Assembly (NCBI GenBank): GCA_963832915.1
Contig: CAWHWE010000013.1
Location: 1,644-65,643, forward strand
Length of the DNA: 64,000 nt
Source: an uncultured Acidobacteriota bacterium
GTDB lineage: Bacteria > Acidobacteriota > Terriglobia > UBA7540
Direction of reading: 5' to 3'
Shown here: positions 7,481 to 62,356 of the stretch, one piece after another
How positions within the stretch are numbered: the first letter of the stretch is position 1
How the letters are laid out: every line of letters begins with the position of its first letter
The notes under the pieces: generated by a model
What the model was told of the DNA's origin: nothing
Database searches by the model: none
What the model saw: the letters and a program-made list of their open reading frames with translations, nothing else
Program-made: the position numbers and the translations under genes

Positions 7481-8599
7481 ATGGATTCTAAAGAAAGACT
7501 CATGACGGCACTTCATAAGGGGAAGCCGGACCGGCTGCCGATTTCAGTCCACCAATGGCAGGCCTACCATCTCAAATACTTCCTGAATGGTATTTCGGCG
7601 CTGGAGGCCTTCCAGAAATTCGGCATGGATGCGCAGATCCAGTATTTCGGCGATGTGGGTCAAAGCGCCCTGGTTGATTATGATTTCACTAAATTCTCCA
7701 CTCCGGAATGGCACGATGAAGTTACCGCGGTCAGCAACGACCCCGACAACCGAATGGCCAATCATGCGATTCAAACCCCGGAGGGGATGCTGACCTATAA
7801 GACTCGTGGCGACCGGAAGACGACCTGGATCACCGAATACATGGTTAAACGCGATGAAGACATCGAGATCATTGACAAGTATTTGCCGGTGGGGAAACTG
7901 GATCTGGCCCCGGTGCAGACCCTCTACGATGAAGTCGGCGACAAGGGCATTCTGCGCGGGTTTGTTTGGGGAGACCAGGGCGGCTGCTGGCAACACGCCT
8001 GTTGCCTCATGGACGTCACCGAACTCATCATGCGCTGTATGGACAAACCGGACTGGGTTCATCGTTTGCTGACTATTCTTCTCCATAAGAAGCTCCGCTT
8101 CATCGAATCGATGAAAGGAGCCAAGTTTGACCTGGTTGAGACGGGCGGTGGAGCGGGTTCGTCCACGGTCATTTCTCCCAAATTGCACAGGGAGTTCTGC
8201 ACGCCTTACGACCGCAAAATGCATGACGCCCTGCACGACCTCGGATTCCTGGTGGCCTACCACACTTGCGGCGGGACGCGAGGAATCGAGGAATTGATTG
8301 TCGCCAATGGCGCGGACATTTCAGAGACGCTGGCCCCGACGAGCATTGGTGGAAATCAGGAACCCTGGGAATTCAAGCAAAAAGTGGGTAACAGGCTCGC
8401 CGTGATTGGCGGGCTTGACCAGTTCAACGTGCTCACCGCAGGGCCGGCCGAAAACATCCGGCAAACCGTGTGCACGCTCTTCGAGAAGGTCGGGCAGGAC
8501 GGAGGCTACGTCTGCTCGGTAAGCGATCACTTCTTCGATACGCCGGTCGAGCATCTCCAGGTGATGGCCGACGCGGCGAAAGAATGCGTCTATAACTGA
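7481..8599 (+). CDS. URO-D/MtaA-like family protein, paralog 2
   Basis: ...HKGKPDRLPISVHQW... signature; GGAGG RBS 8 nt upstream of ATG 7481. Confidence 0.7.
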   Translation: MDSKERLMTALHKGKPDRLPISVHQWQAYHLKYFLNGISALEAFQKFGMDAQIQYFGDVGQSALVDYDFTKFSTPEWHDEVTAVSNDPDNRMANHAIQTPEGMLTYKTRGDRKTTWITEYMVKRDEDIEIIDKYLPVGKLDLAPVQTLYDEVGDKGILRGFVWGDQGGCWQHACCLMDVTELIMRCMDKPDWVHRLLTILLHKKLRFIESMKGAKFDLVETGGGAGSSTVISPKLHREFCTPYDRKMHDALHDLGFLVAYHTCGGTRGIEELIVANGADISETLAPTSIGGNQEPWEFKQKVGNRLAVIGGLDQFNVLTAGPAENIRQTVCTLFEKVGQDGGYVCSVSDHFFDTPVEHLQVMADAAKECVYN

Positions 8600-8600
8600 T

Positions 8601-9710
8601 ATGACTATAAACTCAATAGAGATTCGTGTATGCCACAACACCCGCGCGGCCATGTCCGACTCGGAAATGCGCATGGGAGGAAGATCGACATTTGATTTCC
8701 TCGTCATTTCAATGAAGACCGACACGGGGATCGAGGCGAATTCCTTTGGATTTGCGGGACGCGGCGCCGGGATGGCCGGAGAGATTGCAGCCTCGGCGCT
8801 AAAGCCCTTCTTCCTGGGCAAAGACCCGCTGGCGCGGGAAAAACACTGGCAAGACTTCCGCACGTACGACCGCTGGTGGAACCACGTTCCGATTTATTCT
8901 TACGGCCCCTTTGACATCTGCCTTTACGACATCGCCGCCCAGATGGCGGGGCTGCCACTCTACAAACTGCTTGGCATGTACAGGGACAAGGCGCCCACCT
9001 ACGCGAGCTCCTTCGTGCTGCCGGCGCCCGAAGACTATGCCCGGCAGGCGCTGGAGGTTAAGAACAGGGGCTGGCACGCCTACAAGCTTCATCCCCCTGG
9101 AAAGGTTGACTTCGATCTGAGGGCGTACCGGGCCTGCCGGGAAGCTGTCGGCCCGGATTTCAAGCTGATGGCCGACCCGGTGGCGGCTTACTCCCACGAA
9201 GAGGCTTTGCGGGTGGGGCGCGAGCTCGAGCGGCTCAATTTCTATTGGTTGGAGGAACCCCTCTTCGACGTCGATTTCCACGGACTGCGAATGCTGACTG
9301 CCAAGCTGGACATCCCCATCATCGGCACCGAGGTGCTTGCCGGCTCGCACTACTCCACCGCGGACTGCATCGCCACGGGGGTGGTGGACATGGTCCGCAC
9401 TGATGTGTCCTGGAAGGGGGGTATTACGCCGGTCATGAAGACGGCCCACTTGGCGGAGTCCTTCGGGGTGAAGTGTGAGCTGCACACCGCCATCTACCAC
9501 CCGCTGGAAGTGGTGAACCTGCACTGCTGCTGCGCCATTTCCAACTCCGAGTTCTTCGAACTTTTGTACCCCCTCTCCTATATGGACTTTGGAATGAGAA
9601 GCCCATTGCAGATTGACGCCGAAGGCTACGCGCACCCTCCCGAGACGCCGGGGATCGGGGTTGAGTTCGATTGGAATTTTATCGACAACTGTACCATTAA
9701 GAAGCTGTAG
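8601..9710 (+). CDS. Enolase-superfamily (mandelate racemase/muconate lactonizing enzyme) sugar-acid dehydratase, candidate L-rhamnonate/L-fuconate dehydratase
   Basis: MR/MLE-type barrel segments (…KLHPPGKVDFDLRAYRACREAVGPDFKLMADP…EEPL…) and adjacency to rhaM. Confidence 0.7.
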   Translation: MTINSIEIRVCHNTRAAMSDSEMRMGGRSTFDFLVISMKTDTGIEANSFGFAGRGAGMAGEIAASALKPFFLGKDPLAREKHWQDFRTYDRWWNHVPIYSYGPFDICLYDIAAQMAGLPLYKLLGMYRDKAPTYASSFVLPAPEDYARQALEVKNRGWHAYKLHPPGKVDFDLRAYRACREAVGPDFKLMADPVAAYSHEEALRVGRELERLNFYWLEEPLFDVDFHGLRMLTAKLDIPIIGTEVLAGSHYSTADCIATGVVDMVRTDVSWKGGITPVMKTAHLAESFGVKCELHTAIYHPLEVVNLHCCCAISNSEFFELLYPLSYMDFGMRSPLQIDAEGYAHPPETPGIGVEFDWNFIDNCTIKKL

Positions 9711-9777
9711 CGGCGATTTTATATCGCCATAGCTCGTCCGTTCCCGACGCGGGGTGGCGGCGTAAAGCCGCCGCTAC
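9709..9777. repeat. Nested-hairpin element: TGTAGCGGCG [GGCGATtttataTCGCC] [GGCGGCgtaaaGCCGCC] CGCCGCTACA. It includes the TAG stop of the dehydratase gene.
   Basis: Palindromes read from the sequence. Confidence 0.6.
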
Positions 9778-9797
9778 AAGAAGGAGCCAACAAACTT

Positions 9798-10136
9798 ATG
9801 CAAGCGCCAAAGCTTAAGCGGTATGGACAGATCATCGGACTGAAACCGGGAGCCTACGATATGTACGTTGAGCACCATGCGAAGGTCTGGCCGGGAGTTT
9901 TAAAGACCATCTACGACTGCAACATTCGCAACTACTCAATATTCTACAAAGACAATACGCTCTTTGCTTATTTCGAATATATAGGCGACGCCTTCGAGGC
10001 TGACATGGCGAAGATGGCTGCGGACCCCACGACACAGGAATGGTGGGCTATCATGAAGCCGTTGCAGCAGCCGATCCCCACCCGCGCCGAAGGGGAATGG
10101 TGGGCCGATATGAAAGAGGTGTTCCACGTTGACTGA
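9798..10136 (+). CDS. rhaM: L-rhamnose mutarotase
   Basis: 112 aa; ...YVEHHAKVWPGVL...IRNYSIF... matches the RhaM/YiiL family. Confidence 0.8.
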   Translation: MQAPKLKRYGQIIGLKPGAYDMYVEHHAKVWPGVLKTIYDCNIRNYSIFYKDNTLFAYFEYIGDAFEADMAKMAADPTTQEWWAIMKPLQQPIPTRAEGEWWADMKEVFHVD

Positions 10137-31057: not shown

Positions 31058-31063
31058 AACCAG

Positions 31064-32668
31064 TTATCCTTGCTTCCCCTCTGCTGGCGCTGGCTGCACA
31101 GGCGTCTTGGGTTCGGCCGCTTGCGTTTCCTTGCCCGCGGTGAGTCTGCCGCCGTCGACGCCCAGTTGCGAGAGCACGGCAGGCAAGTCGAGGCCCAACG
31201 CTTGCAACTGTTGGAGCAAGCTGAACACCAGCGCCGGGCCGGTTTGGGCGATGCGACCAATGCCTCCCGTCCCGTCGCCCGCCGCACTGTTTCCTTGGTC
31301 AATAACCACCACTCGATCGATGTTACCTAGCGGGGCAGCAACCGCTCCGAAAATACTTGCTGAGGCTTGGAGGACAGCAGGCAACTTTTCGAGTATGGTC
31401 TGGAGCTTGGCGGCCTCGTTGAATTGCTTCCACGCTTCCGCCTTCTTCAGGATGGCCTGTGCCTCGGCAACGCCCTGCGCCTCGATGGCACGCGCCTGGG
31501 CCAGACCCACTGCTTCCACCTTGGAGGCCTCGGCGCGGCCCTGCGCCTCGGTGGCTGCGGCTTGGCCCAGACCTTCCTGCCGGAATTTCTCTTGCGCGGC
31601 TTCGGCCATAGCGATCTGAGCGGCCTTACTGCCCTCTGCTTCCAGAATGGCAGCCTGCTTCTTGGCTTCCGCACGCAAAATGGCCGCCTGCCGGTCCGCC
31701 TCGGCGGCCTTGATGACCGTGGCCTCCAGTTCTTTCTGCTTGCGTTGTACCTCCTGTTCCTGGACGGCAATCTGCTCCTGGGTGCGCACCCTCTCCACCC
31801 GCACCTCTTCCATGACCACGGCCTGCTTGGCCTTGGCCTGCGACAGCGGACCGGCTTGCGCGGCCGTAGCCTTTTGCGTTTCCACTTCGGCCAGGAACTG
31901 GGCCTGCTTTACCTGAAAGTCGCGCTGCGCCGCAGCAATGTTGGCGTCCGCGTCGAACTTTGCCTTCTCGCCTTCCTGCATGGCCAAGGCGGACTTGATC
32001 TTCGCATCCCGCATGGCCTCGGCCTCGCCAATGGTCCCATCGCGTTTCACCTCCGCCGTGCGCTTCTTGCCCAGGGCGTCCAAGTAACCTTCTTCGTCGG
32101 ATATGTCCTGGATGGTGAGCACGTCCACACCAATGCCCATTCTCTCCAGGTCCACGGTGGCTTCCGAGGTCAGCTTCTGGGCGAAGCTCTGGCGGTCGCT
32201 GTTCACCTCTTCCACGGTCAGGGTGCCGAGGATCGATCGCAGGTGGCCTTCCAGCGTCTGAAAGATGACCCGTTGTATCTCTTCGTGCGACATGCCGAGA
32301 AAGCGCTCAGCAGCGGCGCTGAGGGACATGTCATCGCCTTTGATCTTGACGTTGGCGACCGCCTTCACCGAAATGGGCACGCCTTTAAAGGTGTAGGCGC
32401 GCTTGATTTCCAGCGGAATCGTGAAGACGTTTAAGGAAAGGTAGTCCACCTGTTCCAGGAGCGGGAAACGGAAGGCCGCACCGCCCTTGATCATGCGGTA
32501 GCCCACGATTTTGCCGTCCGGGGTCCTCCGCTTCCGTCCGCTGAAGACGGCCACGGCATTGGGTGGCACTTTCAGATAGTTCCGGCTGAAAAGAGCCATG
32601 GCCACAATGAGAGCCAAAACGACAAAGACCACAATGATGGGAACGAAGAACTGGGTAATCACATTCAT
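31064..32668 (-). CDS. Flotillin / SPFH (band-7) domain protein, YqiK-like
   Basis: N-terminal TM then SPFH domain and a long Ala/Glu/Gln-rich coiled coil (…AEAKKQAAILEAEG…). Start chosen at ATG 32668; the ORF-track start at 33001 runs through the repeat array. Confidence 0.8.
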   Translation of the reverse strand: MNVITQFFVPIIVVFVVLALIVAMALFSRNYLKVPPNAVAVFSGRKRRTPDGKIVGYRMIKGGAAFRFPLLEQVDYLSLNVFTIPLEIKRAYTFKGVPISVKAVANVKIKGDDMSLSAAAERFLGMSHEEIQRVIFQTLEGHLRSILGTLTVEEVNSDRQSFAQKLTSEATVDLERMGIGVDVLTIQDISDEEGYLDALGKKRTAEVKRDGTIGEAEAMRDAKIKSALAMQEGEKAKFDADANIAAAQRDFQVKQAQFLAEVETQKATAAQAGPLSQAKAKQAVVMEEVRVERVRTQEQIAVQEQEVQRKQKELEATVIKAAEADRQAAILRAEAKKQAAILEAEGSKAAQIAMAEAAQEKFRQEGLGQAAATEAQGRAEASKVEAVGLAQARAIEAQGVAEAQAILKKAEAWKQFNEAAKLQTILEKLPAVLQASASIFGAVAAPLGNIDRVVVIDQGNSAAGDGTGGIGRIAQTGPALVFSLLQQLQALGLDLPAVLSQLGVDGGRLTAGKETQAAEPKTPVQPAPAEGKQG

Positions 32669-32683
32669 GACTTCCCCCCGGCA

Positions 32684-32722
32684 CTGGAAAATGAAAACTC
32701 GAAAATCGAAAATCGAAAATGG
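32684..32722. repeat. Short array of ~5 heptamers NNCGAAA (…CTCGAAAATCGAAAATCGAAAAT…), inverse orientation to the array at 34571-34661
   Basis: Read from the sequence. Confidence 0.7.
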
Positions 32723-32769
32723 AGAGTGGTTAGTCTGGCGGGTTGCTGCGCTCTTCTGACCACCCACTT

Positions 32770-33409
32770 CCAAACGCAGCGTCCTAAATAGTTGCGCATC
32801 CTTAGACGCAGTAGCCGCATTAATGGCTTTGGCCGTCGACCCGGATGCGAGCTTATTTATTGCCTCGAGTTTAGATAGCTCTATAGAAGCGGCTATTCCA
32901 ATAGTGCCACATCTGGCGTGTTGACAGGGCCATGTCATAGTGATCGTTACTCTTGTCTGTGAACCGTCTAGGTGCGCACGATCTACCGTTGTCACTGGCA
33001 TTCAACTCGCCTGCCCAGAGTCCCGCACCCGGCGCAGGATGACTTTCTTCAATAAATAGCGCCGGACAAGGAAGATCCCAATCAACGCGCCGGTGGTTCG
33101 CCATATCAAATCGTTTATGTACTCAGCGACCGAAAGCGGCATCCCCAACACATGCGCGCATAGGAAATAGCAAAAAAATGGGAATAGCATTGCTTCCACC
33201 AAGTACTGGGAAATCAACGGCACAATGATCGCCAGAGCCCAAACGCTCGCTGTAGCTGCCCTAGACAGTTTCTGACCGGACCGCTTTGCGTCCCCGGCGG
33301 AGTAGAAGGCACCTACGATAACCACCACAAACGGCACCACACTCAGAAGCTCGAACATCTTCTCCTCCCAGGTGTAAGGATACGCAACTATTTATGACGC
33401 TGCGTCTAG
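32770..33409. mobile_element. ~640-bp low-GC cassette bounded by 32-bp imperfect inverted repeats (CCAAACGCAGCGTCCTAAATAGTTGCGCATCC at 32770-32801; GGATACGCAACTATTTATGACGCTGCGTCTAG at 33378-33409, 28/32 complementary); carries one small membrane-protein ORF; MITE/cargo-like
   Basis: IRs compared by eye; the AT-rich interior contrasts with the flanks. Confidence 0.5.
33002..33358 (-). CDS. Hypothetical small membrane protein (118 aa, 3-4 TM) carried by the IR-bounded cassette
   Basis: Hydrophobic segments; lower GC; no family recognised. Confidence 0.4.
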   Translation of the reverse strand: MFELLSVVPFVVVIVGAFYSAGDAKRSGQKLSRAATASVWALAIIVPLISQYLVEAMLFPFFCYFLCAHVLGMPLSVAEYINDLIWRTTGALIGIFLVRRYLLKKVILRRVRDSGQAS

Positions 33410-34494
33410 TGTCCTGAGTCAGAAGTTCGTTTGCAAAACCTTGCGACGGCCTCCAGGATTTGGTCAGCGGTTTTGGTCCATACGAAAGGCCGGGGGTCTT
33501 GGTTATAGGTTTCCACATAATGGTGCAGAGCCGCCTCCAGTTCTTGGGTGCTGCGATGAGCGCTACGGCGCAGTTGGCGCTCCGTCAGGGTGGCGAACCA
33601 ACGCTCGACCAGATTGATCCAGGACGAACCGGTGGGAGTGAAGTGCAAATGATAGCGAGGATGGCGCACCAGCCAACGCTGAATCATCGCAGTCTTGTGC
33701 GTGCCGTAGTTATCCAGAATCAAATGCACGTCCAGGTCCGCGGGAGTGGCGGTATGGACCGTCTCCAGAAACCGGCGGAACTCGAGGGCGCGATGCCGAC
33801 GATGACACTCGCCAATGACTTTGCCGCTGGCCATCTCCAGAGCTGCAAACAGCAACGTCGTGCCGTGACGTTCGTAATCGTGAGTTCGCCGCTCGATTTG
33901 TCCGGGGCGCATCGGCAGCAGCGGTTGGGTTCGGTCCAAGGCTTGGATCTGGGCCTTTTCATCCACGCACAGCACCAAGGCTTGGTCGGGCGGGTTCAGG
34001 TAGAGTCCCACGATGTCCCGGACTTTCTCGATAAACAGTGGGTCGCGCGACAACTTGAAGGTTTCGCTGCGATGCGGCTGCAAGGCGAACGCCCGCCAGA
34101 TGCGGCTGATGGCCGTCTGGCTCATGCCGCAACGGCGTGCCAGCAGTCGCGTGCTCCAGTGCGTCGCATTGCACGGCATTGATTCCAGGGTCAGGGTCAA
34201 CACCCGTTCCACCTCCGCATCGCCGATGCGGCGCGGCGCTCCGGGGCGTGGTTCGTCCAGCAACCCCTCCAGACGCTGGACGACGAATCGTCCTCGCCAC
34301 TTGCCCACGGTGGGTTTACACACGTGCAGGGCAGCGCTCACCGCCGTGTTGTTTTTTCCCTCTGCGCAGGCCAGCACGATGCGGGCGCGCAACGCCAGGG
34401 CTTGAGCGGTTTTGCGCCGCTGCGCCCAGCCCTGCAAGGTTTCTCGCTCTTCAGCACTCAAGGTCAATTCCGGTGTAGGGCGTCCTCGTCGCAT
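33406..34494 (-). CDS. IS630-family transposase (362 aa)
   Basis: N-terminal HTH (…[42 protein letters not shown]…), DDE region (…[11 protein letters not shown]…[16 protein letters not shown]…). The stop codon is formed at the TIR/TA junction. Confidence 0.85.
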
Positions 34495-34567
34495 TGGTGT
34501 CCTCCTTCTTATAAACCCAATGCACGAGAACTTCCATTTATTAAACGAACTTCTGACTCAGGACACT
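33409..34567 (-). mobile_element. IS630-family insertion sequence (1159 bp) with perfect 24-bp TIRs GTGTCCTGAGTCAGAAGTTCGTTT / AAACGAACTTCTGACTCAGGACAC, inserted into CTAG with TA duplication (33407-33408 and 34568-34569)
   Basis: TIRs and target read from the sequence. The junctions reconstruct C-TA-[IS]-TA-G, the hallmark of IS630-family insertion. Confidence 0.85.
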
Positions 34568-34570
34568 AGT

Positions 34571-34661
34571 TTCCAGTTTCGCTTTTCGCTTTTCGAATTT
34601 CGCTTTTCGAATTTCCAGTTTCGCTTTTCGAGTTTCGATTTTCGAATTTCGAATTTCGAGT
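34571..34661. repeat. Array of 13 tandem heptamers TTTCGNN (tttccag tttcgct tttcgct tttcgaa tttcgct tttcgaa tttccag tttcgct tttcgag tttcgat tttcgaa tttcgaa tttcgag), abutting the nfeD stop codon
   Basis: Parsed by eye from the sequence. Confidence 0.8.
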
Positions 34662-34666
34662 TCCCG

Positions 34667-35227
34667 CTACTCTGCCCGTCGCACCACAACGGTCTCGCCC
34701 ACGACAGCTTCGATCTTCACCAGAGTATTGAGGGGAATCTGTTCGCCGTCTTGCGACCGGGCAATCTTCTCCACCACGCTCTCCCCAATCGTGCACCGGA
34801 CTTGTCCCACTCCAGCTCTCGGGATGGCCACGCTGACCTGGGCTATGCTCCCTGCCAGATCGCTAATCCGAATTTCGCTGGAGGCCTGCTGGCTGAAAAG
34901 GAAACTGGCGAAGAGGTAAATGATGGTCCCGAAGACCAAGCCGCCAGCCACCCCTATAACGGTGCTCACCTCCGTGCTATAACCAAGGTGGATACCAATA
35001 GCCCCGAAGCCGCCAAACGCGGTTATGAAAACACTGAGGATGCGACTGCTGAGGATGCTGACGCCCGCCTCCCCGTGCACGTCGCCGTGAAAATCCGATT
35101 CATGGCCCGCCAAGTCGCCATGCTCGAACAATTCCCCGGACACGAAACTCACCACCAGGATTAAGAACCCGATGGACGCAATACCTAGAAATACTGCAAA
35201 CGCTGAGAACCCGGCAAAGGTCAACAT
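34667..35227 (-). CDS. NfeD-like (YqiJ-type) membrane protein with a C-terminal OB-fold, partner of flotillin
   Basis: N-terminal TM helices, His-rich linker (EHGDLAGHESDFHGDVHGEAG) and C-terminal beta-rich domain typical of NfeD short forms. Same strand as, and upstream of, the flotillin gene. Confidence 0.65.
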   Translation of the reverse strand: MLTFAGFSAFAVFLGIASIGFLILVVSFVSGELFEHGDLAGHESDFHGDVHGEAGVSILSSRILSVFITAFGGFGAIGIHLGYSTEVSTVIGVAGGLVFGTIIYLFASFLFSQQASSEIRISDLAGSIAQVSVAIPRAGVGQVRCTIGESVVEKIARSQDGEQIPLNTLVKIEAVVGETVVVRRAE

Positions 35228-35396
35228 GAGTCAGCCTCGCAGTATCGAGGGAGATTAGGGCTTCCCAAGCACTCCCAGGACGCATGCATAGAATCAGTCA
35301 CGCCTAACTCTAGAACCGACCCGTGCCGAAGTCAAGGCAACCAGCACACTCACCCTCCCTGCGCTTTCAGGTATTGGTGTCATTTGCGAGACCCAG

Positions 35397-35422
35397 TCAT
35401 TCCCGCGAAAGCGGGAATGACC
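35397..35422. repeat. Perfect palindrome GTCATTCCCGC-gaaa-GCGGGAATGAC (related copies at 47401-47424 and 47463-47486; same GGGAATG core as the tri-iteron elements)
   Basis: Read from the sequence. Confidence 0.75.
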
Positions 35423-35469: not shown

Positions 35470-35498
35470 GCCTTTCGCGTTGCGTTTCCGTTTTAGTC
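35470..35498 (+). promoter_or_regulatory. Promoter of the ankyrin gene: -35 TTGCGT, 17-bp spacer, -10 TAGAAT; GGAGG RBS at 35519
   Basis: Hexamers and spacing read from the sequence. Confidence 0.45.
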
Positions 35499-35527
35499 TG
35501 TATAGAATCAAGCCAATCGGAGGAACC

Positions 35528-36763
35528 ATGAACGCGCACTCTTTGTTTAGCCCATCGTACCACTTCCCGTTCTCCCGACGCGCCGTCGTCACGCTTCTGG
35601 CGCTGGTCGCGCTGGTTTGGATCCGCCCCGCCTTCTGCGACGAGATTCTTGACGCGGCCCGGGACGGCGATGTGAAAAAGGTGCAAGCCCTGATTAACGG
35701 CAATCCAGACCTGGTTTTGAGCAAAGACGGCAACGGCTTGACGGCTTTGCACTGGGCGGCGGGAAGGGGCCATCGGGAGCTGGTGGAACTGCTCATGGCC
35801 AGCAAGGCCGATGTCAATGCCAAGTCCGGCAATGGCTCGACCCCTTTGCATCTCGCGGCGTTTAACGGCCACAAGGACGTGGCAGAGCTGCTGCTGGCCA
35901 ATCACGCGGAGGTTAATGCCAAGAACAACGACGGCTGGACGCCATTGCACGGGGCGACGCGTTATGACCACCTAGACGTGGCGGAACTGCTGGTGGCCAA
36001 TGGGGCCGATGTCAATGCCAAGGTAAACAATGGCTCGACCCCTTTGCATATGGCGGCTGCTTTGGGCTACAAGGGCTTGGCGGAATTGCTGTTGGACCAC
36101 CAAGCCGACGTTAATGTCAAGGAGAGCCACGGATTTACACCCTTGCAACTGGCGGAGTCTAATAGCCAACCGGACGTGGCGGAGTTGCTCCGCCAGCACA
36201 TCGGCCAGGGCGCCTCCACGCCCACGCAGGCCGCGCCGACCACGTCCGCACAGGGTGACAAACATGGCGCAGAAGCGCTCGCCCACGAGATTCAGGAACG
36301 CCCCGCGAACGCTGGCGAGATAAAGGAAATGATTGCGGAGATTTCTCGTCGGATAACACCGTTCAATCTGTTGGATGCGCAGGACGGATTCAAGGGACAG
36401 CTGGAAAGCAGCGATAATGTTCTGAGGTCCTCTTTTGCGATTGGTGAGATGACGACGTCGACTATCGCAAGACAGCGGCCAATGGGCGACAGGACTTCTG
36501 TTGAGATCCTTCGGAGGAATGGGAGTCTCGTTGCGATATCATTCAAGAATGTTGCGGGCAACTCTGGATTTTCCGAGATCTGGGCGGCAAAACCGGCAGT
36601 GATTCTTAGCGATCCAACCACTGCAAGTACCTCAGGTGGCGTCGGATTCAACCGAGTCGCCCTCCTCAATGGCGGGGTTGCGACAGAATATCGAATTGTT
36701 GGACCGAACGTCTGGTCTGTATCGACCCATCCCGATCAAGAATATATTAATAGTGTCGAGTGA
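35528..36763 (+). CDS. Secreted ankyrin-repeat protein: signal peptide, ~6 ANK repeats (res ~60-250), Ala/Pro/Thr linker, ~170-aa C-terminal domain of unknown function
   Basis: Repeated …DGNGLTALHWAAGRGHRELVELLMASKADVNAK… units; N-terminal hydrophobic signal ending AFC. Confidence 0.85.
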   Translation: MNAHSLFSPSYHFPFSRRAVVTLLALVALVWIRPAFCDEILDAARDGDVKKVQALINGNPDLVLSKDGNGLTALHWAAGRGHRELVELLMASKADVNAKSGNGSTPLHLAAFNGHKDVAELLLANHAEVNAKNNDGWTPLHGATRYDHLDVAELLVANGADVNAKVNNGSTPLHMAAALGYKGLAELLLDHQADVNVKESHGFTPLQLAESNSQPDVAELLRQHIGQGASTPTQAAPTTSAQGDKHGAEALAHEIQERPANAGEIKEMIAEISRRITPFNLLDAQDGFKGQLESSDNVLRSSFAIGEMTTSTIARQRPMGDRTSVEILRRNGSLVAISFKNVAGNSGFSEIWAAKPAVILSDPTTASTSGGVGFNRVALLNGGVATEYRIVGPNVWSVSTHPDQEYINSVE

Positions 36764-38303: not shown

Positions 38304-38534
38304 ATAAATTCCTTCTGTGAAGGAGTAAGTAGCTCGTTGTCCGTAGTCCGTCGAAAAAGGGGCTGGGGGCTAGGGCAATTCTGAATTGTGAATTCTGAAT
38401 CGTGAATTGGAGAAGCGCAGCGGTCAGAGGTCCTTGGCTCAGCGCCCAAATCAAGCTCTGAATCCCCAATTCACGATTCGCCATTCACTATGCACAATAC
38501 GCCTCACACCTGACACCCGAAACCTGCCCCTGCT

Positions 38535-47195: not shown

Positions 47196-47694
47196 CGCCG
47201 TGCGCCTTGCACTCCTCTCCCGTTGCAAATCCGATGGGGGGAAACCCCGACAAGATTCGCGACCTATAAAAAAAGTGGGCTTTCGCCCACTAAGCGCGTT
47301 CGCCATGATTAGTATAGACCTTGAAAGCGACAAATAGCAAGGCCGCCTAAAACCTGTTACTGGGGAGTCACTTGGAATGGGGATACAATCGAGCCGCTGG
47401 TCATTCCCACTAAAGCGGGAATCCAGTCAATCCACAGGAAATTTCCGAAGGTTTGCAGAGTGGATTCCCGCTTTCGCGGGAATGACCGCGTTTCGTAAGG
47501 GATTTTGGACCTTTAGGTAAGGCACAGGAGGAGTTACCGTGCCAAAATCCTTTCGTTATGCCTTGCAGGCTCTTAAAAAGGGAAACAATGCCAGCCCCTT
47601 CCTAAGTCCTCCGGTTTTGCGCTAAGATGGCGCGTCCAAGGCTGAATGGGGCGGACTCGTTCTGCCGAGCAGGTGGCAATTCAGGACCCGTCCC

Positions 47695-48639: not shown

Positions 48640-48757
48640 TGGAATTGGCTTAGGGGTTGATCAATTCTATTTCTGAAGTGTGAAGTGTAAAGTACGATGT
48701 CCCTCGCGAACCCATGGCTCTTGACTCCTGAATCCTGGCTCCTGATTCATGTCTTTC

Positions 48758-49522: not shown

Positions 49523-49663
49523 ATCGGCTCCATCGAGAGATTCCGGTTTCAGGTGTCAGGTTCCAGGCGCCATGGGCTCGGTGCTGGGGACCAGGGAGAG
49601 GCAGGCTACCAACGCGCAACCCCGGTTTTTGTAGCCCTCGGCTCACTGCTTGCTGCCTACTGC

Positions 49664-50764
49664 CTACTGCCTTCCGTTCTTCACGGGGGCCCGCCGCAGC
49701 GCCGACTGCATCATCAGAAACTCCCCCACGTTGTCGGTGGTGAGCATTCCAACAAGTTGGCCGTCATGGACAACCGGTAAGGAACGGGACTTACTATCGT
49801 GCAGAACCACAAGGGCGCGTTCCAGCATGTCGTGCGAGTCAACGGCTTGAAACTCACGCTTCATAGCATCGCGAACCAGGGTATCAGAACCGTGTTGAGC
49901 GATGGTACGGAATACATCTTCCCGAGAGAGCACACCCAGGACACGGTCGCCAAATACAACCGGAAAATCCTGCTGCCCCCCGGCGAGGGTATGATCGATG
50001 GCGGTCTGGAGCGGGTCGTCCGGGTTGATGGTGCGAAATTCCGTGAGCATAGCCCGCTGCACCGGGATGCCCCCGAGGGAGGCGTGCACCTGCACCATCG
50101 CGGCTTCCTGTTCAGCCCCCATCCAAACGAACAAAGCGATGAAAAGAAGGAAAGGGTCTGTAAACAGGCCCACGAAACCAAAAACATAGGCGATAGCTTG
50201 GCCGATGCGCGAGGCAAGGACCGTGGCTCGTGTGTATTCCAAGCGAGTGGCAAGAATGGCGCGCAGCACGCGCCCACCATCCATGGGGAAGGCGGGGATG
50301 AGGTTAAAGGCGAGCAACCAGAGGTTGACCACCATCAGCCTGTTCAGGAAATTTCCTCCCAACCAATGGAACGGCTGAACCTGAGGGGAAATACCGGCGA
50401 AAAGCTCCCCTGCATATAGCGCGCCCGCAATCACCGCGTTCACGGCCGGCCCCGCCAGCGCCACCCAAAGCTCCTGGATCGGCACGTCCGGCATACGCTC
50501 CAGGCGCGCCAATCCCCCGATCGGTAACAACGTAATATCGCGCGTCTGTATGCCGTACTTGCGCGCGGCCAGCGCGTGGCCCAGCTCGTGCAGCACGATG
50601 CAAGCAAAGATGACCAGTATAAACAACGTGCCCGCAAGCGCGCCCTCCATGGTGCGACCCTGATGCAAATACACGCCGAGTATGAAAAGGATGAGCAGGA
50701 CAAAGGTGGCATGCACGTACACGCCTATGCCGGCGATTGTTCCGATTCTCCAGGACCAGCGCAT
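49664..50764 (-). CDS. Site-2 protease family (M50) zinc metalloprotease with a CBS-domain pair
   Basis: HELGHALAARKYG (HExxH in a TM helix) and a C-terminal CBS-like region. Confidence 0.8.
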   Translation of the reverse strand: MRWSWRIGTIAGIGVYVHATFVLLILFILGVYLHQGRTMEGALAGTLFILVIFACIVLHELGHALAARKYGIQTRDITLLPIGGLARLERMPDVPIQELWVALAGPAVNAVIAGALYAGELFAGISPQVQPFHWLGGNFLNRLMVVNLWLLAFNLIPAFPMDGGRVLRAILATRLEYTRATVLASRIGQAIAYVFGFVGLFTDPFLLFIALFVWMGAEQEAAMVQVHASLGGIPVQRAMLTEFRTINPDDPLQTAIDHTLAGGQQDFPVVFGDRVLGVLSREDVFRTIAQHGSDTLVRDAMKREFQAVDSHDMLERALVVLHDSKSRSLPVVHDGQLVGMLTTDNVGEFLMMQSALRRAPVKNGRQ

Positions 50765-55378: not shown

Positions 55379-55669
55379 GGTCAGTAGTCAGTTCTCAGTG
55401 GTCAGTTGCCAGTAGTCCGTTGTTCGTAGTCCGTGGTCAGTCGTCCGTTCCAGCAACCGCCCCGCTCGACAGAAAGTAGCCCCCTCCCCCTTGAAGGCTG
55501 AGCGTCTCCCACACCTTTGACTGGATACCGGGGCCGAAGTGAATGAACCGCCCTCTCCCTTGGAGAGAGGGTGTCCAGCGACGGCGCTTTCTCCAGCCGT
55601 CGCCGGACGGGTGAGGGGGCATCGACCTTGCTTCGCCTCGTGCCGCCCGCTCTAGTGTAGAATACTTTC

Positions 55670-57290: not shown

Positions 57291-57405
57291 GGATGCACTC
57301 CTTAAGAAATTTTCAGCAATCAGCCCTCAGCTCTCAACAAGCGTCCCATTCCCCTGCATTCCAGATTACTCGCTGACGGCTGAAAGTTGATGGCTGACGG
57401 CTATT

Positions 57406-58926: not shown

Positions 58927-59249
58927 GACGGCCAGATCTCCAGTCCGACGGTACCAGACCAGATTAGGCCACTTTCAGCGACCTGTAAAGAGCCAAGTGA
59001 GCCAATGTGAGAATAGGCCAATGGGGAGAAAGTCAGGGGCTGGGTAAGAACAGTGCGCAGTTGGCAGAGCGGAAAAACGAGGGCTGGGGACGGAGGGAGG
59101 ACGGTAAGCAGTCGCCAGCCGGCAGTGGACCATAGGACCGGAAACTGGTGTTGGTAATCTGCTGTTCCCTGGTCCCCAGCCCCGAGCCCCGTTCTTGGCC
59201 GGGGCCAATTCAAAATCCAAAATCTAAAATCCAAAATTGCCCTACGCCC

Positions 59250-61985: not shown

Positions 61986-62356
61986 GCGAGAGCTGTTAGA
62001 GTCCTGTAACTGAAGTTCGTTGCATAAATGCCGTACTCTGAGAACGGCTCTACAGCCCCGATAGGGGCGGTAGAACTTAGCCCACGGCGTGAGCCTTGGG
62101 TAGGCGAGCCCTCCCTCACCCCCATCCCCTCTCCCGCCCGCGCGGGAGAGGGGTGCGGAAGGCGGGGAGTGGGTCGTCTTTCCCAGGGCTTGCGCCCTGG
62201 GCTACAATCTTCCGCCCCTGTCGGGGCTGGGAAGCGAATCCCTCGCCGGGCAGACTTCATGAATGAACTTACATTACACGACACTAGAGGATACGAATCC
62301 CTTTTTCGACCTTGGCTTTTCCACTTTCTAATTTCCAGTTTCCGAGCGGGCGGGCG

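Follow-up and report, generated by a model that had tools for sequence, protein, structure and literature searches.

Evidence for nested insertion of a single-gene cassette and an IS630-family element in a heptamer-repeat hairpin between nfeD-like and flotillin genes of an uncultured Acidobacteriota bacterium

Introduction

The yuaF(nfeD2)-floT pair of Bacillus subtilis is an example of an operon that combines an nfeD gene with a flotillin gene. Intergenic heptanucleotide tandem repeats, of which the cyanobacterial STRR are one kind, have been described in several bacterial groups. TAACTGA arrays occur in Beggiatoaceae and cyanobacteria (PMC4679880), and GGGACCG and MTYCTGA arrays occur in Geobacter (PMC2700814). 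Palindromes of the REP/BIME type are preferred targets of insertion sequences (PMC1525189), and ISPpu9 is found in REPs (PMC12288879). MICs and MITEs are non-autonomous elements with inverted repeats of the IS type, and they may or may not contain passenger genes (PMC3913671). IS630 itself has been reported to prefer CTAG (Tenzen and Ohtsubo 1991, as cited in PMC2170065), and duplication of the target TA was shown for ISY100 (PMC2170065). Recombination between inverted repeats gives rise to inversions, as exemplified by IS inversions between terminal repeats (PMC3004938).

Here, we describe a locus in which several of these features meet. It lies in a stretch of 64,000 nt from an uncultured Acidobacteriota bacterium (Terriglobia; UBA7540; GCA_963832915.1, contig CAWHWE010000013.1, positions 1,644–65,643 of the forward strand), hereafter called the window, and was compared with the corresponding loci of 80 related species.

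Results

In the window, the flotillin gene and the nfeD-like gene are separated by 2.0 kb (Table 1). In the flotillin product, a flotillin-type coiled-coil region comes after the SPFH (Band_7) domain. The Band_7 match was clear (E 1.9e-24, 87 bits against a cutoff of 23.6), the Flot match (23.9 bits) was just under the cutoff of 27, and FloT NF058507 was matched at 474 of 477 positions with 344 bits, under the equivalog cutoff of 700. Its full-length identity to the flotillins of two related species, L004 and L006, is about 93–95%. Gene callers lengthened the flotillin gene to 624–645 aa, through the cassette described below. The 186-aa product of the other gene matched PF01957 with E 0.026 (15.2 bits, under the gathering cutoff of 29.1; residues 156–184 covered), and its best PDB match was YuaF (2k14, E 0.058). 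Members of the same 90% cluster have the JGI name [quoted passage not shown]. The label "NfeD-like" is a tentative one, drawn from the weak profile and PDB matches, synteny, and the JGI names. An exact look-up of this product led to two loci, L081 and L082, while exact look-ups of the flotillin product and the product of ORF118 (see below) gave no match. A consensus scan found two promoter-like sites against 0.9 expected, and thus the site upstream of nfeD is weak.

Table 1. Positions of the features of the nfeD-flotillin locus in the window
Feature	Position	Strand	Basis or remark
Flotillin/SPFH gene, 534 aa, intact	31064–32668	-	Band_7, Flot, and FloT matches
Flotillin-proximal stem half, ~5 units, CGAAAAT on + strand	32683–32721		TRF 32687–32720, period 7, 4.9 copies
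Ancestral hairpin loop, apparently inverted relative to the flanking genes	32722–32773		Match to L004/L006 loop
Cassette, 632 bp, IR-bounded, one gene	32774–33405	-	Absent from all 80 related species loci
Cassette IR, flotillin-side arm, 34 nt	32774–32807		31/34 complementary to 33372–33405
ORF118, predicted small helical membrane protein, rare family	33002–33358	-	Shine-Dalgarno sequence GGAGG ~6 nt upstream of ATG
Cassette IR, nfeD-side arm, 34 nt	33372–33405		Last base adjoins the CTAG that took the IS
Transposase ORF	33406–34494	-	DDE_3 and HTH domains
TA target-site duplication, first copy	33407–33408		Single TA in L081/L082
IS630-family IS, 1158 bp	33409–34566	-	TIRs 33409–33432 and 34543–34566
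TA target-site duplication, second copy	34567–34568		CTA[IS]TAG
nfeD-proximal stem half, ~13 units, TTTCGNN on + strand	34570–34662		TRF periods 7, 14, and 21
NfeD-like membrane protein gene, 186 aa, intact	34667–35227	-	Weak matches and synteny
Promoter-like site TTGACT-17-TAGAGT	35307–35335	-	Upstream of nfeD; consensus match only

The relatives supported the view, stated in the original prediction, that nfeD and flotillin genes are normally adjacent. An nfeD homologue lay beside the flotillin gene in 78 of the 80 related loci (tblastn), and the spacers measured in 77 of the 80 genomes were 12–368 nt long. Neither ORF118 nor the transposase was present at the locus in any of the 80. In L004 and L006, the spacer at the same position is 200–222 nt long, lacks the cassette, and is made up of a loop with arrays on both sides, the junction reading CTTCTAG. 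The RNA fold of the spacer was calculated to be about -103 kcal/mol for L004 (-102.8; z -10.8) and -79 kcal/mol for L006 (z -7.8).

Two heptamer arrays also border the inserted DNA of the window. They are in inverted orientation and 78–89% complementary, and TRF counted 11.9 copies at period 7 in the 93-nt nfeD-proximal array. Arrays of five and thirteen units in opposite orientation had been predicted as part of the insertion; the arrays themselves were found (4.9 copies, and 11.9 copies or about 13 units), but they predate the insertion, being present in cassette-free relatives. GAAA/TTTC heptamer arrays occur at the nfeD-flotillin locus in about 26 related species. In the 64-kb window and the 80 loci (1.22 Mb), 200 arrays of period 7 were counted, as well as 41 pairs of inverted arrays, which belong to several unit types; a second inverted pair in the window lies at 38378–38498. 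Instead of a single conserved unit of 20–40 nt, the stems contain degenerate heptamers in tandem, which differ in unit type and vary in copy number. We conclude that the arrays evidently represent the stem of an ancestral intergenic hairpin that is common to many relatives, and not a signature of the insertion. The candidate role of composite-transposon ends was dropped, because the arrays occur in cassette-free relatives.

The first inserted segment is the cassette. Its inverted repeats coincide exactly with the ends of the DNA that L004 and L006 lack, and its edges are 0–3 nt from the insertion point, CTTC^TAG, defined by these two loci. A 640-bp AT-rich cassette with 32-bp inverted repeats had been predicted. 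The cassette was recognized, with a length of 632 bp and repeats of 34 nt, but it is merely mildly AT-rich, because its GC content is 52.2% compared to 57.5% for the window. The repeats, with a similarity of 28/32 in the original prediction, have arms that are complementary at 31 of 34 positions (91%), and none of the shuffles of the window yielded two matches to a cassette arm. There is no transposase inside the cassette, which contains one convincing ORF, encoding a 118-aa membrane protein (ORF118). The 3' non-coding part is not unusually structured (z -0.37), an open frame in this part has no protein homologues, and an Rfam scan of positions 32600–34750 at E<=1 gave no match.

No other copy of the cassette or of its inverted repeats, the search for which had been proposed in the original prediction, was found in the window, in 1.31 Mb of related DNA (blastn-short), in metagenome contigs (two scans), in viral contigs (one scan), or in plasmids (blastn). 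The matches of the repeats in the metagenome and viral contigs were chance 17–20-mers without extension. A clean target-site duplication around the cassette was not found either: the flanks read CTTC-CA-[A...C]-TA-GTTT against CTTC-TA-GTTT in the empty site, and a TA duplication requires one mutated base. The repeats show no resemblance to the IS630 ends, and no transposase with matching ends is known. Derivation of the cassette from the resident IS630 was rejected since the ends are unrelated, and an integron cassette with attC was rejected because the repeats are at both ends and no GTTRRRY core was seen by eye. As the searches gave no other copy and there is no clear target duplication, the cassette is a putative mobile element.

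The same negative results would also fit another origin, in which the 632-bp segment is foreign or duplicated DNA that recombination or repair introduced into the loop, for instance at a site of cruciform formation or replication stalling, and its 34-nt repeats are a nested palindrome of the kind accumulating in such loops. Other heptamer-palindrome loops also hold nested, IR-bounded single-gene elements; L004 has a perfect 15-nt inverted repeat at 9641–9850, the L010 loop has a 31-nt inverted repeat, and the L008 loop has a 23S_rRNA_IVP gene (E 4e-19). We nevertheless regard this origin as unlikely. The location of highly complementary repeats exactly at the insert boundaries is a hallmark of ends recognized by a transposase, and the junctions could be explained by a duplication of the TA type if one base has mutated.

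Comparison of the loops indicated that the cassette is not the only change in the hairpin. The + strand of the window loop matches the L004/L006 loop in gene orientation at 44–45 of 53 positions, compared to 31–32 of 53 for the gene (-) orientation. The inner 56 nt of the nfeD-proximal array match the reverse-complemented flotillin-proximal array of L004 at 50 positions and the same-side array at 41, while the outer units match the same-side array of L004. The orientation in L001, L002, and L005 is as in L004, and a clearly homologous loop was found in two relatives only, L004 and L006. From this one loop of ~50 nt and the degenerate repeats, we conclude that the hairpin core is evidently inverted compared to that of the cassette-free relatives. 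No recombinase gene was found among the annotated genes within ~10 kb on either side of the inverted segment. The inversion was absent from the earlier reading of this DNA.

The second inserted segment is an insertion sequence with perfect 24-nt TIRs. Its transposase matched the IS630 model NF033545 at 299 of 299 model positions with 263.9 bits (cutoff 100) and DDE_3 with E 7e-19, and HTH_32, HTH_28, HTH_29, and HTH_23 were matched in the N-terminus, all above the cutoffs, strongly indicating that the element belongs to the IS630 family. The reading frame of the transposase runs through the terminal repeat, and its stop codon, TAG, is composed of the duplicated TA and the target G. A 99.9%-identical copy of the element was found in another CTAG, with a different flank (CTAG|AAGGAG), and the 90% protein cluster of the transposase has 32 members on many contigs.

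L081 and L082, two strains that are 98–99.5% identical to the window, possess the cassette (99.5% identical to the window copy) but not the IS. At the IS position they have a single TA, GGAAAC-TA-GACGCAGCG, and the CTAG is intact. The predicted insertion of an IS630 element with perfect 24-bp TIRs into CTAG, with duplication of TA, was thus confirmed, and empty sites were found in related genomes for both inserted segments, L004 and L006 lacking the cassette and L081 and L082 lacking the IS. Since L081 and L082 combine the cassette with the exact IS-empty site, the cassette evidently entered first and the IS later. All intermediate states of the nested insertion are kept in natural populations, namely the hairpin without inserts, the hairpin with only the cassette, and the hairpin with both cassette and IS, and this fixes the order of events without guesswork. 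Of the hierarchy of mobile elements that had been proposed, the nesting is borne out by the empty sites, while the MITE-like mobile cargo element is a putative one, given that the searches gave no second copy, that no clean duplication was seen, and that homologues of the cargo gene elsewhere have no flanking inverted repeats.

ORF118 is judged to be a real gene on the basis of its distant relatives and a confident structural model. Among 1.84 billion cluster representatives, 14 distant relatives were found (E 1e-15 to 7e-4), the alignments with which show conserved motifs, and the AlphaFold model has a pLDDT of 87. No Pfam family was assigned (VanZ, with E 0.044, is too weak to use), and comparison of the model with PDB folds gave no significant match (best E 0.7). 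The homologues in L086–L091 have no flanking inverted repeats, and none of the homologues placeable on contigs is near nfeD or flotillin.

It is conceivable that the nfeD-flotillin operon acquired ORF118 as a functional third gene, that the inversion was selected for the sense orientation that it gave to ORF118, and that the IS630 copy was gained recently in one strain, where it is mildly deleterious. The gene is intact, co-oriented with the operon, and preceded by a strong GGAGG; its stop codon TGA abuts the ATG of a frame continuous with flotillin; and its membrane protein is set between two membrane-raft genes. A single amino-acid difference was found across three assemblies from different samples, but this conservation says little because the assemblies are ~99% identical. 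The positions of the homologues, and the lack of a function or fold match in our searches, make such a recruitment rather unlikely, and it would be compatible with the history proposed below, not exclusive of it. As for a metagenome-bin artefact, either a chimeric join or a misoriented repeat-flanked segment, inverted repeats and a multicopy IS are classic causes of misassembly, and in L092 an IS end runs directly into an IS start (maybe an assembly loop). However, the window, an NCBI MAG, and a Logan run, which are independent assemblies, agree in the cassette and the inversion, the arrays are unambiguous to an assembler given their incomplete complementarity, and the IS, with its perfect ends and TA duplication, has a corresponding empty site, all of which make an artefact extremely improbable.

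We consider it likely that the locus passed from a hairpin, through entry of the cassette and inversion of the core, to the insertion of IS630. The ancestral spacer would have consisted of (GAAANNN)n, a ~45-nt loop ending with CTAG, and (NNNTTTC)n, forming a long palindrome that filled nearly the whole gap from the nfeD stop codon to the flotillin ribosome-binding site. The cassette would have entered the loop/stem junction, most likely by transposition catalysed in trans, like a mobile insertion cassette. Either before or after this entry, the inner array units, the loop, and the cassette, which make up the palindrome core, would have been inverted, the simplest route being recombination of one inverted heptamer array with the other, so that ORF118 came to read in the same direction as the operon. 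An active, multicopy IS630 would then have been inserted by cut-and-paste into the TA of the CTAG by the cassette end, in this strain only.

The transposase gene and ORF118 have the same orientation as nfeD and flotillin, and both flanking genes are intact. Two terminator-like sites were found against 3.2 expected, one of them a weak site inside ORF118 on the coding strand; the terminator and promoter scans both gave results at chance level. The decoupling of flotillin from its NfeD partner and promoter, as originally predicted, is conjectural. Because all of the inserts are co-oriented and no strong terminator is predicted, our tentative view is that read-through still provides a flotillin transcript and that the gene is not silenced.

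Discussion

The locus is a clearly documented and fairly ordinary case of mobile DNA in a repeat hairpin, and no new mechanism is revealed by it. It illustrates that a conserved nfeD-flotillin pair can tolerate 2 kb of co-oriented foreign DNA in between. The soil Acidobacteriota examined here have many very stable heptamer-repeat hairpins, the loops of which have repeatedly collected insertions. This raises the possibility, which we regard as decidedly slim, that the heptamer-array palindromes of this Terriglobia clade are an undescribed class of hypervariable intergenic hairpins, the loops of which serve as landing pads for IS elements and small single-gene cassettes and which could flip the captured DNA by recombination between their own arms. 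If so, genes could be captured and reoriented inside operons on a platform that needs no recombinase, and the window would be one snapshot (capture, flip, and second hit), with the loop insertions in L004, L007, L008, and L010 as others. If the pattern extends over whole genomes, it would account for the places in which IS elements and small orphan genes settle in these bacteria, and would mark the positions most prone to changes of operon structure.

As in the yuaF-floT operons, a small NfeD-like gene is located directly upstream of flotillin and co-oriented with it in 78 of the 80 related loci; in the window, where the NfeD assignment is weak by sequence, the pair is parted by the inserted DNA. 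The IS shares with the IS630/Tc1/mariner elements the single DDE transposase, the N-terminal HTH, the short TIRs, the duplicated TA, and the CTAG target, and nothing essential differs; a small differing detail is the transposase frame that runs through the terminal repeat to a stop codon completed by the target. The cassette resembles MICs and MITEs in having terminal inverted repeats at the exact edges of the insert, no internal transposase, and one passenger gene. It differs from them in that no second copy, matching autonomous IS, or unambiguous target duplication was found, and from a classical non-coding MITE in its length of 632 bp and the gene inside. In common with IR-mediated inversions, a segment bounded by inverted repeats is flipped compared to relatives. 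The repeats here, however, are imperfect heptamer arrays with no invertase gene nearby, and the absence of an adjacent recombinase gene also distinguishes the locus from invertible switches of the fim/hin type.

With respect to REP/BIME sequences, the common feature is the repeated entry of mobile elements into multilocus intergenic hairpin repeats, here the heptamer-palindrome loops of different relatives. Unlike the conserved unit of 20–40 nt in REPs, the repeats of this study are degenerate heptamer tandem arrays of 5–14 units per arm and variable length, and no REP-associated transposase is implicated for them. The arrays share with the known heptanucleotide arrays the period of 7, the intergenic concentration, and the copy number that varies among relatives. 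They differ in having other unit sequences, in occurring in Acidobacteriota, and in being often arranged as inverted pairs, which give very stable hairpins.

Organization of the locus and its empty sites

Both genes flanking the insertion-bearing spacer are intact in the window (see table). The flotillin gene encodes a clear Band_7 domain, and in profile searches its alignment spans the whole FloT model. The upstream gene is NfeD-like by weak matches (PF01957, E = 0.026; YuaF 2k14, E = 0.058), by its conserved place upstream of flotillin, and by the NfeD-type JGI names given to members of its cluster.

Features of the nfeD-flotillin locus, other repeats of the window, and related segments in other species
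Feature	Sequence	Coordinates	Remarks
nfeD-like gene	window	35227-34667	minus strand, first in operon order
nfeD-side heptamer array	window	34662-34570	93 nt, about 13 degenerate units; then CTA
IS630-family element (IS)	window	34566-33409	between CTA and TAG (minus-strand order)
Cassette	window	33405-32774	632 bp, ends are 34-nt inverted repeats; directly after TAG
ORF118	window	33358-33002	118 codons, minus strand, inside cassette
Unique stretch (loop)	window	32773-32722	about 50 nt
Flotillin-side heptamer array	window	32721-32683	about 5 units
Flotillin ribosome-binding site and ATG	window	ATG at 32668	minus strand
Second heptamer palindrome	window	38378-38498	AATTCTG-type units, arms 36 nt, 81% complementary, loop 49 nt
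Other period-7 arrays	window	55380-55450, 59207-59237, 62318-62343, 49645-49672, 48718-48745, 57372-57402	units GTCAGTA, AATCCAA, TTTCCAA, ACTGCCT, others
REP-like GC hairpin CATTCCCGCGAAAGCGGGAATG	window	35398-35419, 47402-47423, 47463-47484	three copies
Ankyrin-repeat protein gene	window	35480-36763	
99/198-bp tandem repeat (TRF)	window	35781-36190	inside ankyrin-repeat protein gene
Conserved segment of about 1 kb	window; L004; L006	26736-27742; 10653-11659; 10638-11644	downstream of the locus
Flotillin-downstream palindrome	L001; L005; L004; L008	9556-9660; 9547-9648; 9598-9906; 9618-10139	

Using the flotillin protein as the query, we collected 80 loci; the metagenome-assembled genomes that hold them belong to Acidobacteriota/Terriglobia and come mainly from peat and soil. 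In 78 loci flotillin is directly preceded by an nfeD homologue, and the spacers are 12–368 nt long (77 measurable). Neither ORF118 nor the transposase occurs in any related spacer (77 measured, 80 loci). The closest species, represented by loci L004 and L006 (flotillin 95% identical, surrounding DNA about 91%), have spacers of 222 and 200 nt, respectively. The finding of empty sites in related genomes upholds the nested insertion put forward in the original prediction.

The IS630 element

A search with the nfeD product retrieved two near-identical assemblies, L081 (GCA_052139915.1) and L082 (Logan assembly of SRR31840415), which are 98–99.5% identical to the window over 8–18 kb. At the IS position both read GGAAAC-TA-GACGCAGCG, an exact empty site with one TA. 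The IS has perfect 24-nt inverted repeats with TA on either side within CTAG, and its transposase, which contains DDE_3 and HTH domains, scores 264 bits on a curated IS630 model (cutoff 100). These results bear out the predicted IS630 insertion, including its ends and the duplicated TA. A copy from another run is 99.9% identical and has a different flank, again at CTAG, and the 90% cluster of the transposase comprises 32 members on many contigs. Taken together, the model score, ends, target, empty site, second flank, and cluster size argue that the IS is an active, multicopy IS630-family member. The same TA duplication and CTAG preference are given for this family in a passage of PMC2170065 that cites Tenzen and Ohtsubo (1991).

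At window 33406-33432 the transposase frame crosses the terminal inverted repeat, which encodes the last eight residues, KRTSDSGH. The frame closes with a TAG formed from the duplicated TA and the final G of CTAG, so that the insertion site provides the stop codon. In a 1254-bp Logan contig (L092, positions 1-40), a single CTAG connects the right end of the IS with its left end; this contig may represent a tandem or circular junction, or the assembly may have looped through a multicopy repeat.

The cassette and ORF118

In L081 and L082 the cassette is present and the IS absent; the cassette therefore preceded the IS. Compared with L004 and L006, the extra DNA starts no more than 3 nt from one repeat arm, and its other end coincides with the final base of the second arm; the insertion point is at the loop/stem junction, CTTC^TAG. 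Arms so exactly aligned with the limits of an insertion look like transposase-recognised ends. The flanks are CA...TA, and a TA duplication fits only if one base changed. The cassette repeats do not resemble the IS630 ends. Neither pair found two matches in any shuffle of the window, which places both far beyond chance. The cassette repeats, predicted at 32 bp, are therefore real but 34 nt long, and the supposed AT-richness proved mild (52% GC versus 57.5% for the window). As for the proposed MITE-like cargo element, a repeat-bounded segment with a gene is present, but searches of the window, 1.31 Mb of related DNA, metagenome and viral collections, and plasmids gave no second copy of the cassette or its repeats. 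The 632-bp segment is therefore described as resembling a mobile insertion cassette and as only putatively mobile, not as a proven member of that class.

ORF118 is a real gene, as judged from its strong GGAGG site, 14 distant relatives with common motifs among 1.84 billion cluster representatives, and a structure prediction that confidently gives a four-helix membrane protein (pLDDT 87). Profile searches assigned it to no Pfam family, and structure searches matched no known fold. Those relatives that could be placed on contigs lie in unrelated contexts and lack flanking repeats.

An ancestral hairpin and inversion of its core

In the spacers of L004 and L006, (GAAANNN)n is followed by a loop (GTGGTTAGTCTCGCGGGTTGCTGCGGTCTT.TAGCTACCCACTTCTAG) and then by (TTTCNNN)n, which reaches the flotillin Shine-Dalgarno sequence. 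Folding of the spacer RNA gave a single long hairpin in each (L004, -102.8 kcal/mol, z = -10.8; L006, -79 kcal/mol, z = -7.8). In about 26 related species this spacer is occupied by similar GAAA/TTTC arrays, whose copy numbers vary widely. Since the cassette-free spacers already have the array-loop-array hairpin, the window arrays are the arms of an ancestral palindrome and not a by-product of the insertions; the arrays were correctly recognized in the original prediction, but their tie to the insertions does not hold.

The window loop matches those of L004 and L006 at 44–45 of 53 positions when its plus strand is set against their gene orientation, and at 31–32 of 53 in its own gene (minus) orientation. 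Likewise, over its inner 56 nt the nfeD-side array agrees with the reverse-complemented flotillin-side array of L004 at 50 positions and with the L004 same-side array at 41; the outermost units match the same-side arrays. These matches indicate that the palindrome core, cassette included, was flipped in the lineage of the window, with breakpoints inside the arrays. The L004 orientation is common to L001, L002, and L005, and the window orientation to L081 and L082. Recombination between the inverted arrays would be the simplest cause, and the flip may have come before or after the cassette arrived. After the flip, ORF118 lies in the operon direction.

Downstream of the locus, the conserved 1-kb segment (approximate length) has the opposite orientation and another distance in L004 and L006, a sign of an additional local rearrangement between the species.

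Possible effects on the operon

Uncoupling of flotillin from nfeD, as expected in the original prediction, is possible but unproven, and read-through transcription would be at least as likely. The transposase gene, ORF118, and flotillin are all co-oriented with nfeD. The frequency of terminator-like sites does not exceed that in shuffled sequence; one of the two found is a weak 5-bp stem on the coding strand within ORF118. In strains free of the IS, nfeD, ORF118, and flotillin read as one compact unit. In the window (32669-33004), the ORF118 stop TGA is directly followed by an ATG (33001) opening a 111-codon frame continuous with flotillin. The resulting ORF is 645 aa long; for L081 and L082, gene callers give a product of 624 aa. 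By our rough estimate, a frame of this kind would stay open by chance in about 1% of cases, and protein searches found no homologues of the extension.

Heptamer palindromes across the clade

Period-7 arrays are common in this clade: the window and the 80 related loci (1.22 Mb) contain 200, including 41 inverted pairs of several unit types. The window itself has a second palindrome of this sort (see table). Among the other six window arrays, no inverted partner was found near the five that were checked (all but 57372). The 99/198-bp tandem repeat was rejected as a DNA element; it reflects the protein repeats of the ankyrin gene.

What is inserted in the palindrome loops differs from one relative to another. 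In L010, the nfeD-flotillin loop has a 245-bp insertion (7664-7908) with 31-nt inverted repeats at its ends, and a palindrome loop of L007 has extra unique DNA. Two inverted copies of the REP-like hairpin bound the L010 insertion. Between flotillin and the downstream Pro_CA_2-like gene, relatives have a (TAAAGGN)n/(NCCTTTA)n palindrome, whose loop contains a nested-repeat element in L004 and a gene for a 131-aa 23S_rRNA_IVP protein (PF05635, E = 4e-19) in L008. In the window this palindrome is missing, and the spacer there is 6 nt (31058-31063).

Heptamer palindromes may be recurrent landing pads for insertions, a role that we regard as the part worth pursuing. A full-text literature search turned up no account of heptamer repeats in Acidobacteria. 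The components of the locus are all of known kinds. Heptamer arrays between genes have been described in other phyla (PMC4679880, PMC2700814), IS elements are known to target extragenic palindromes (PMC1525189), and the proposed flip between inverted arrays would be comparable to the inversion process described for IS terminal repeats (PMC3004938).
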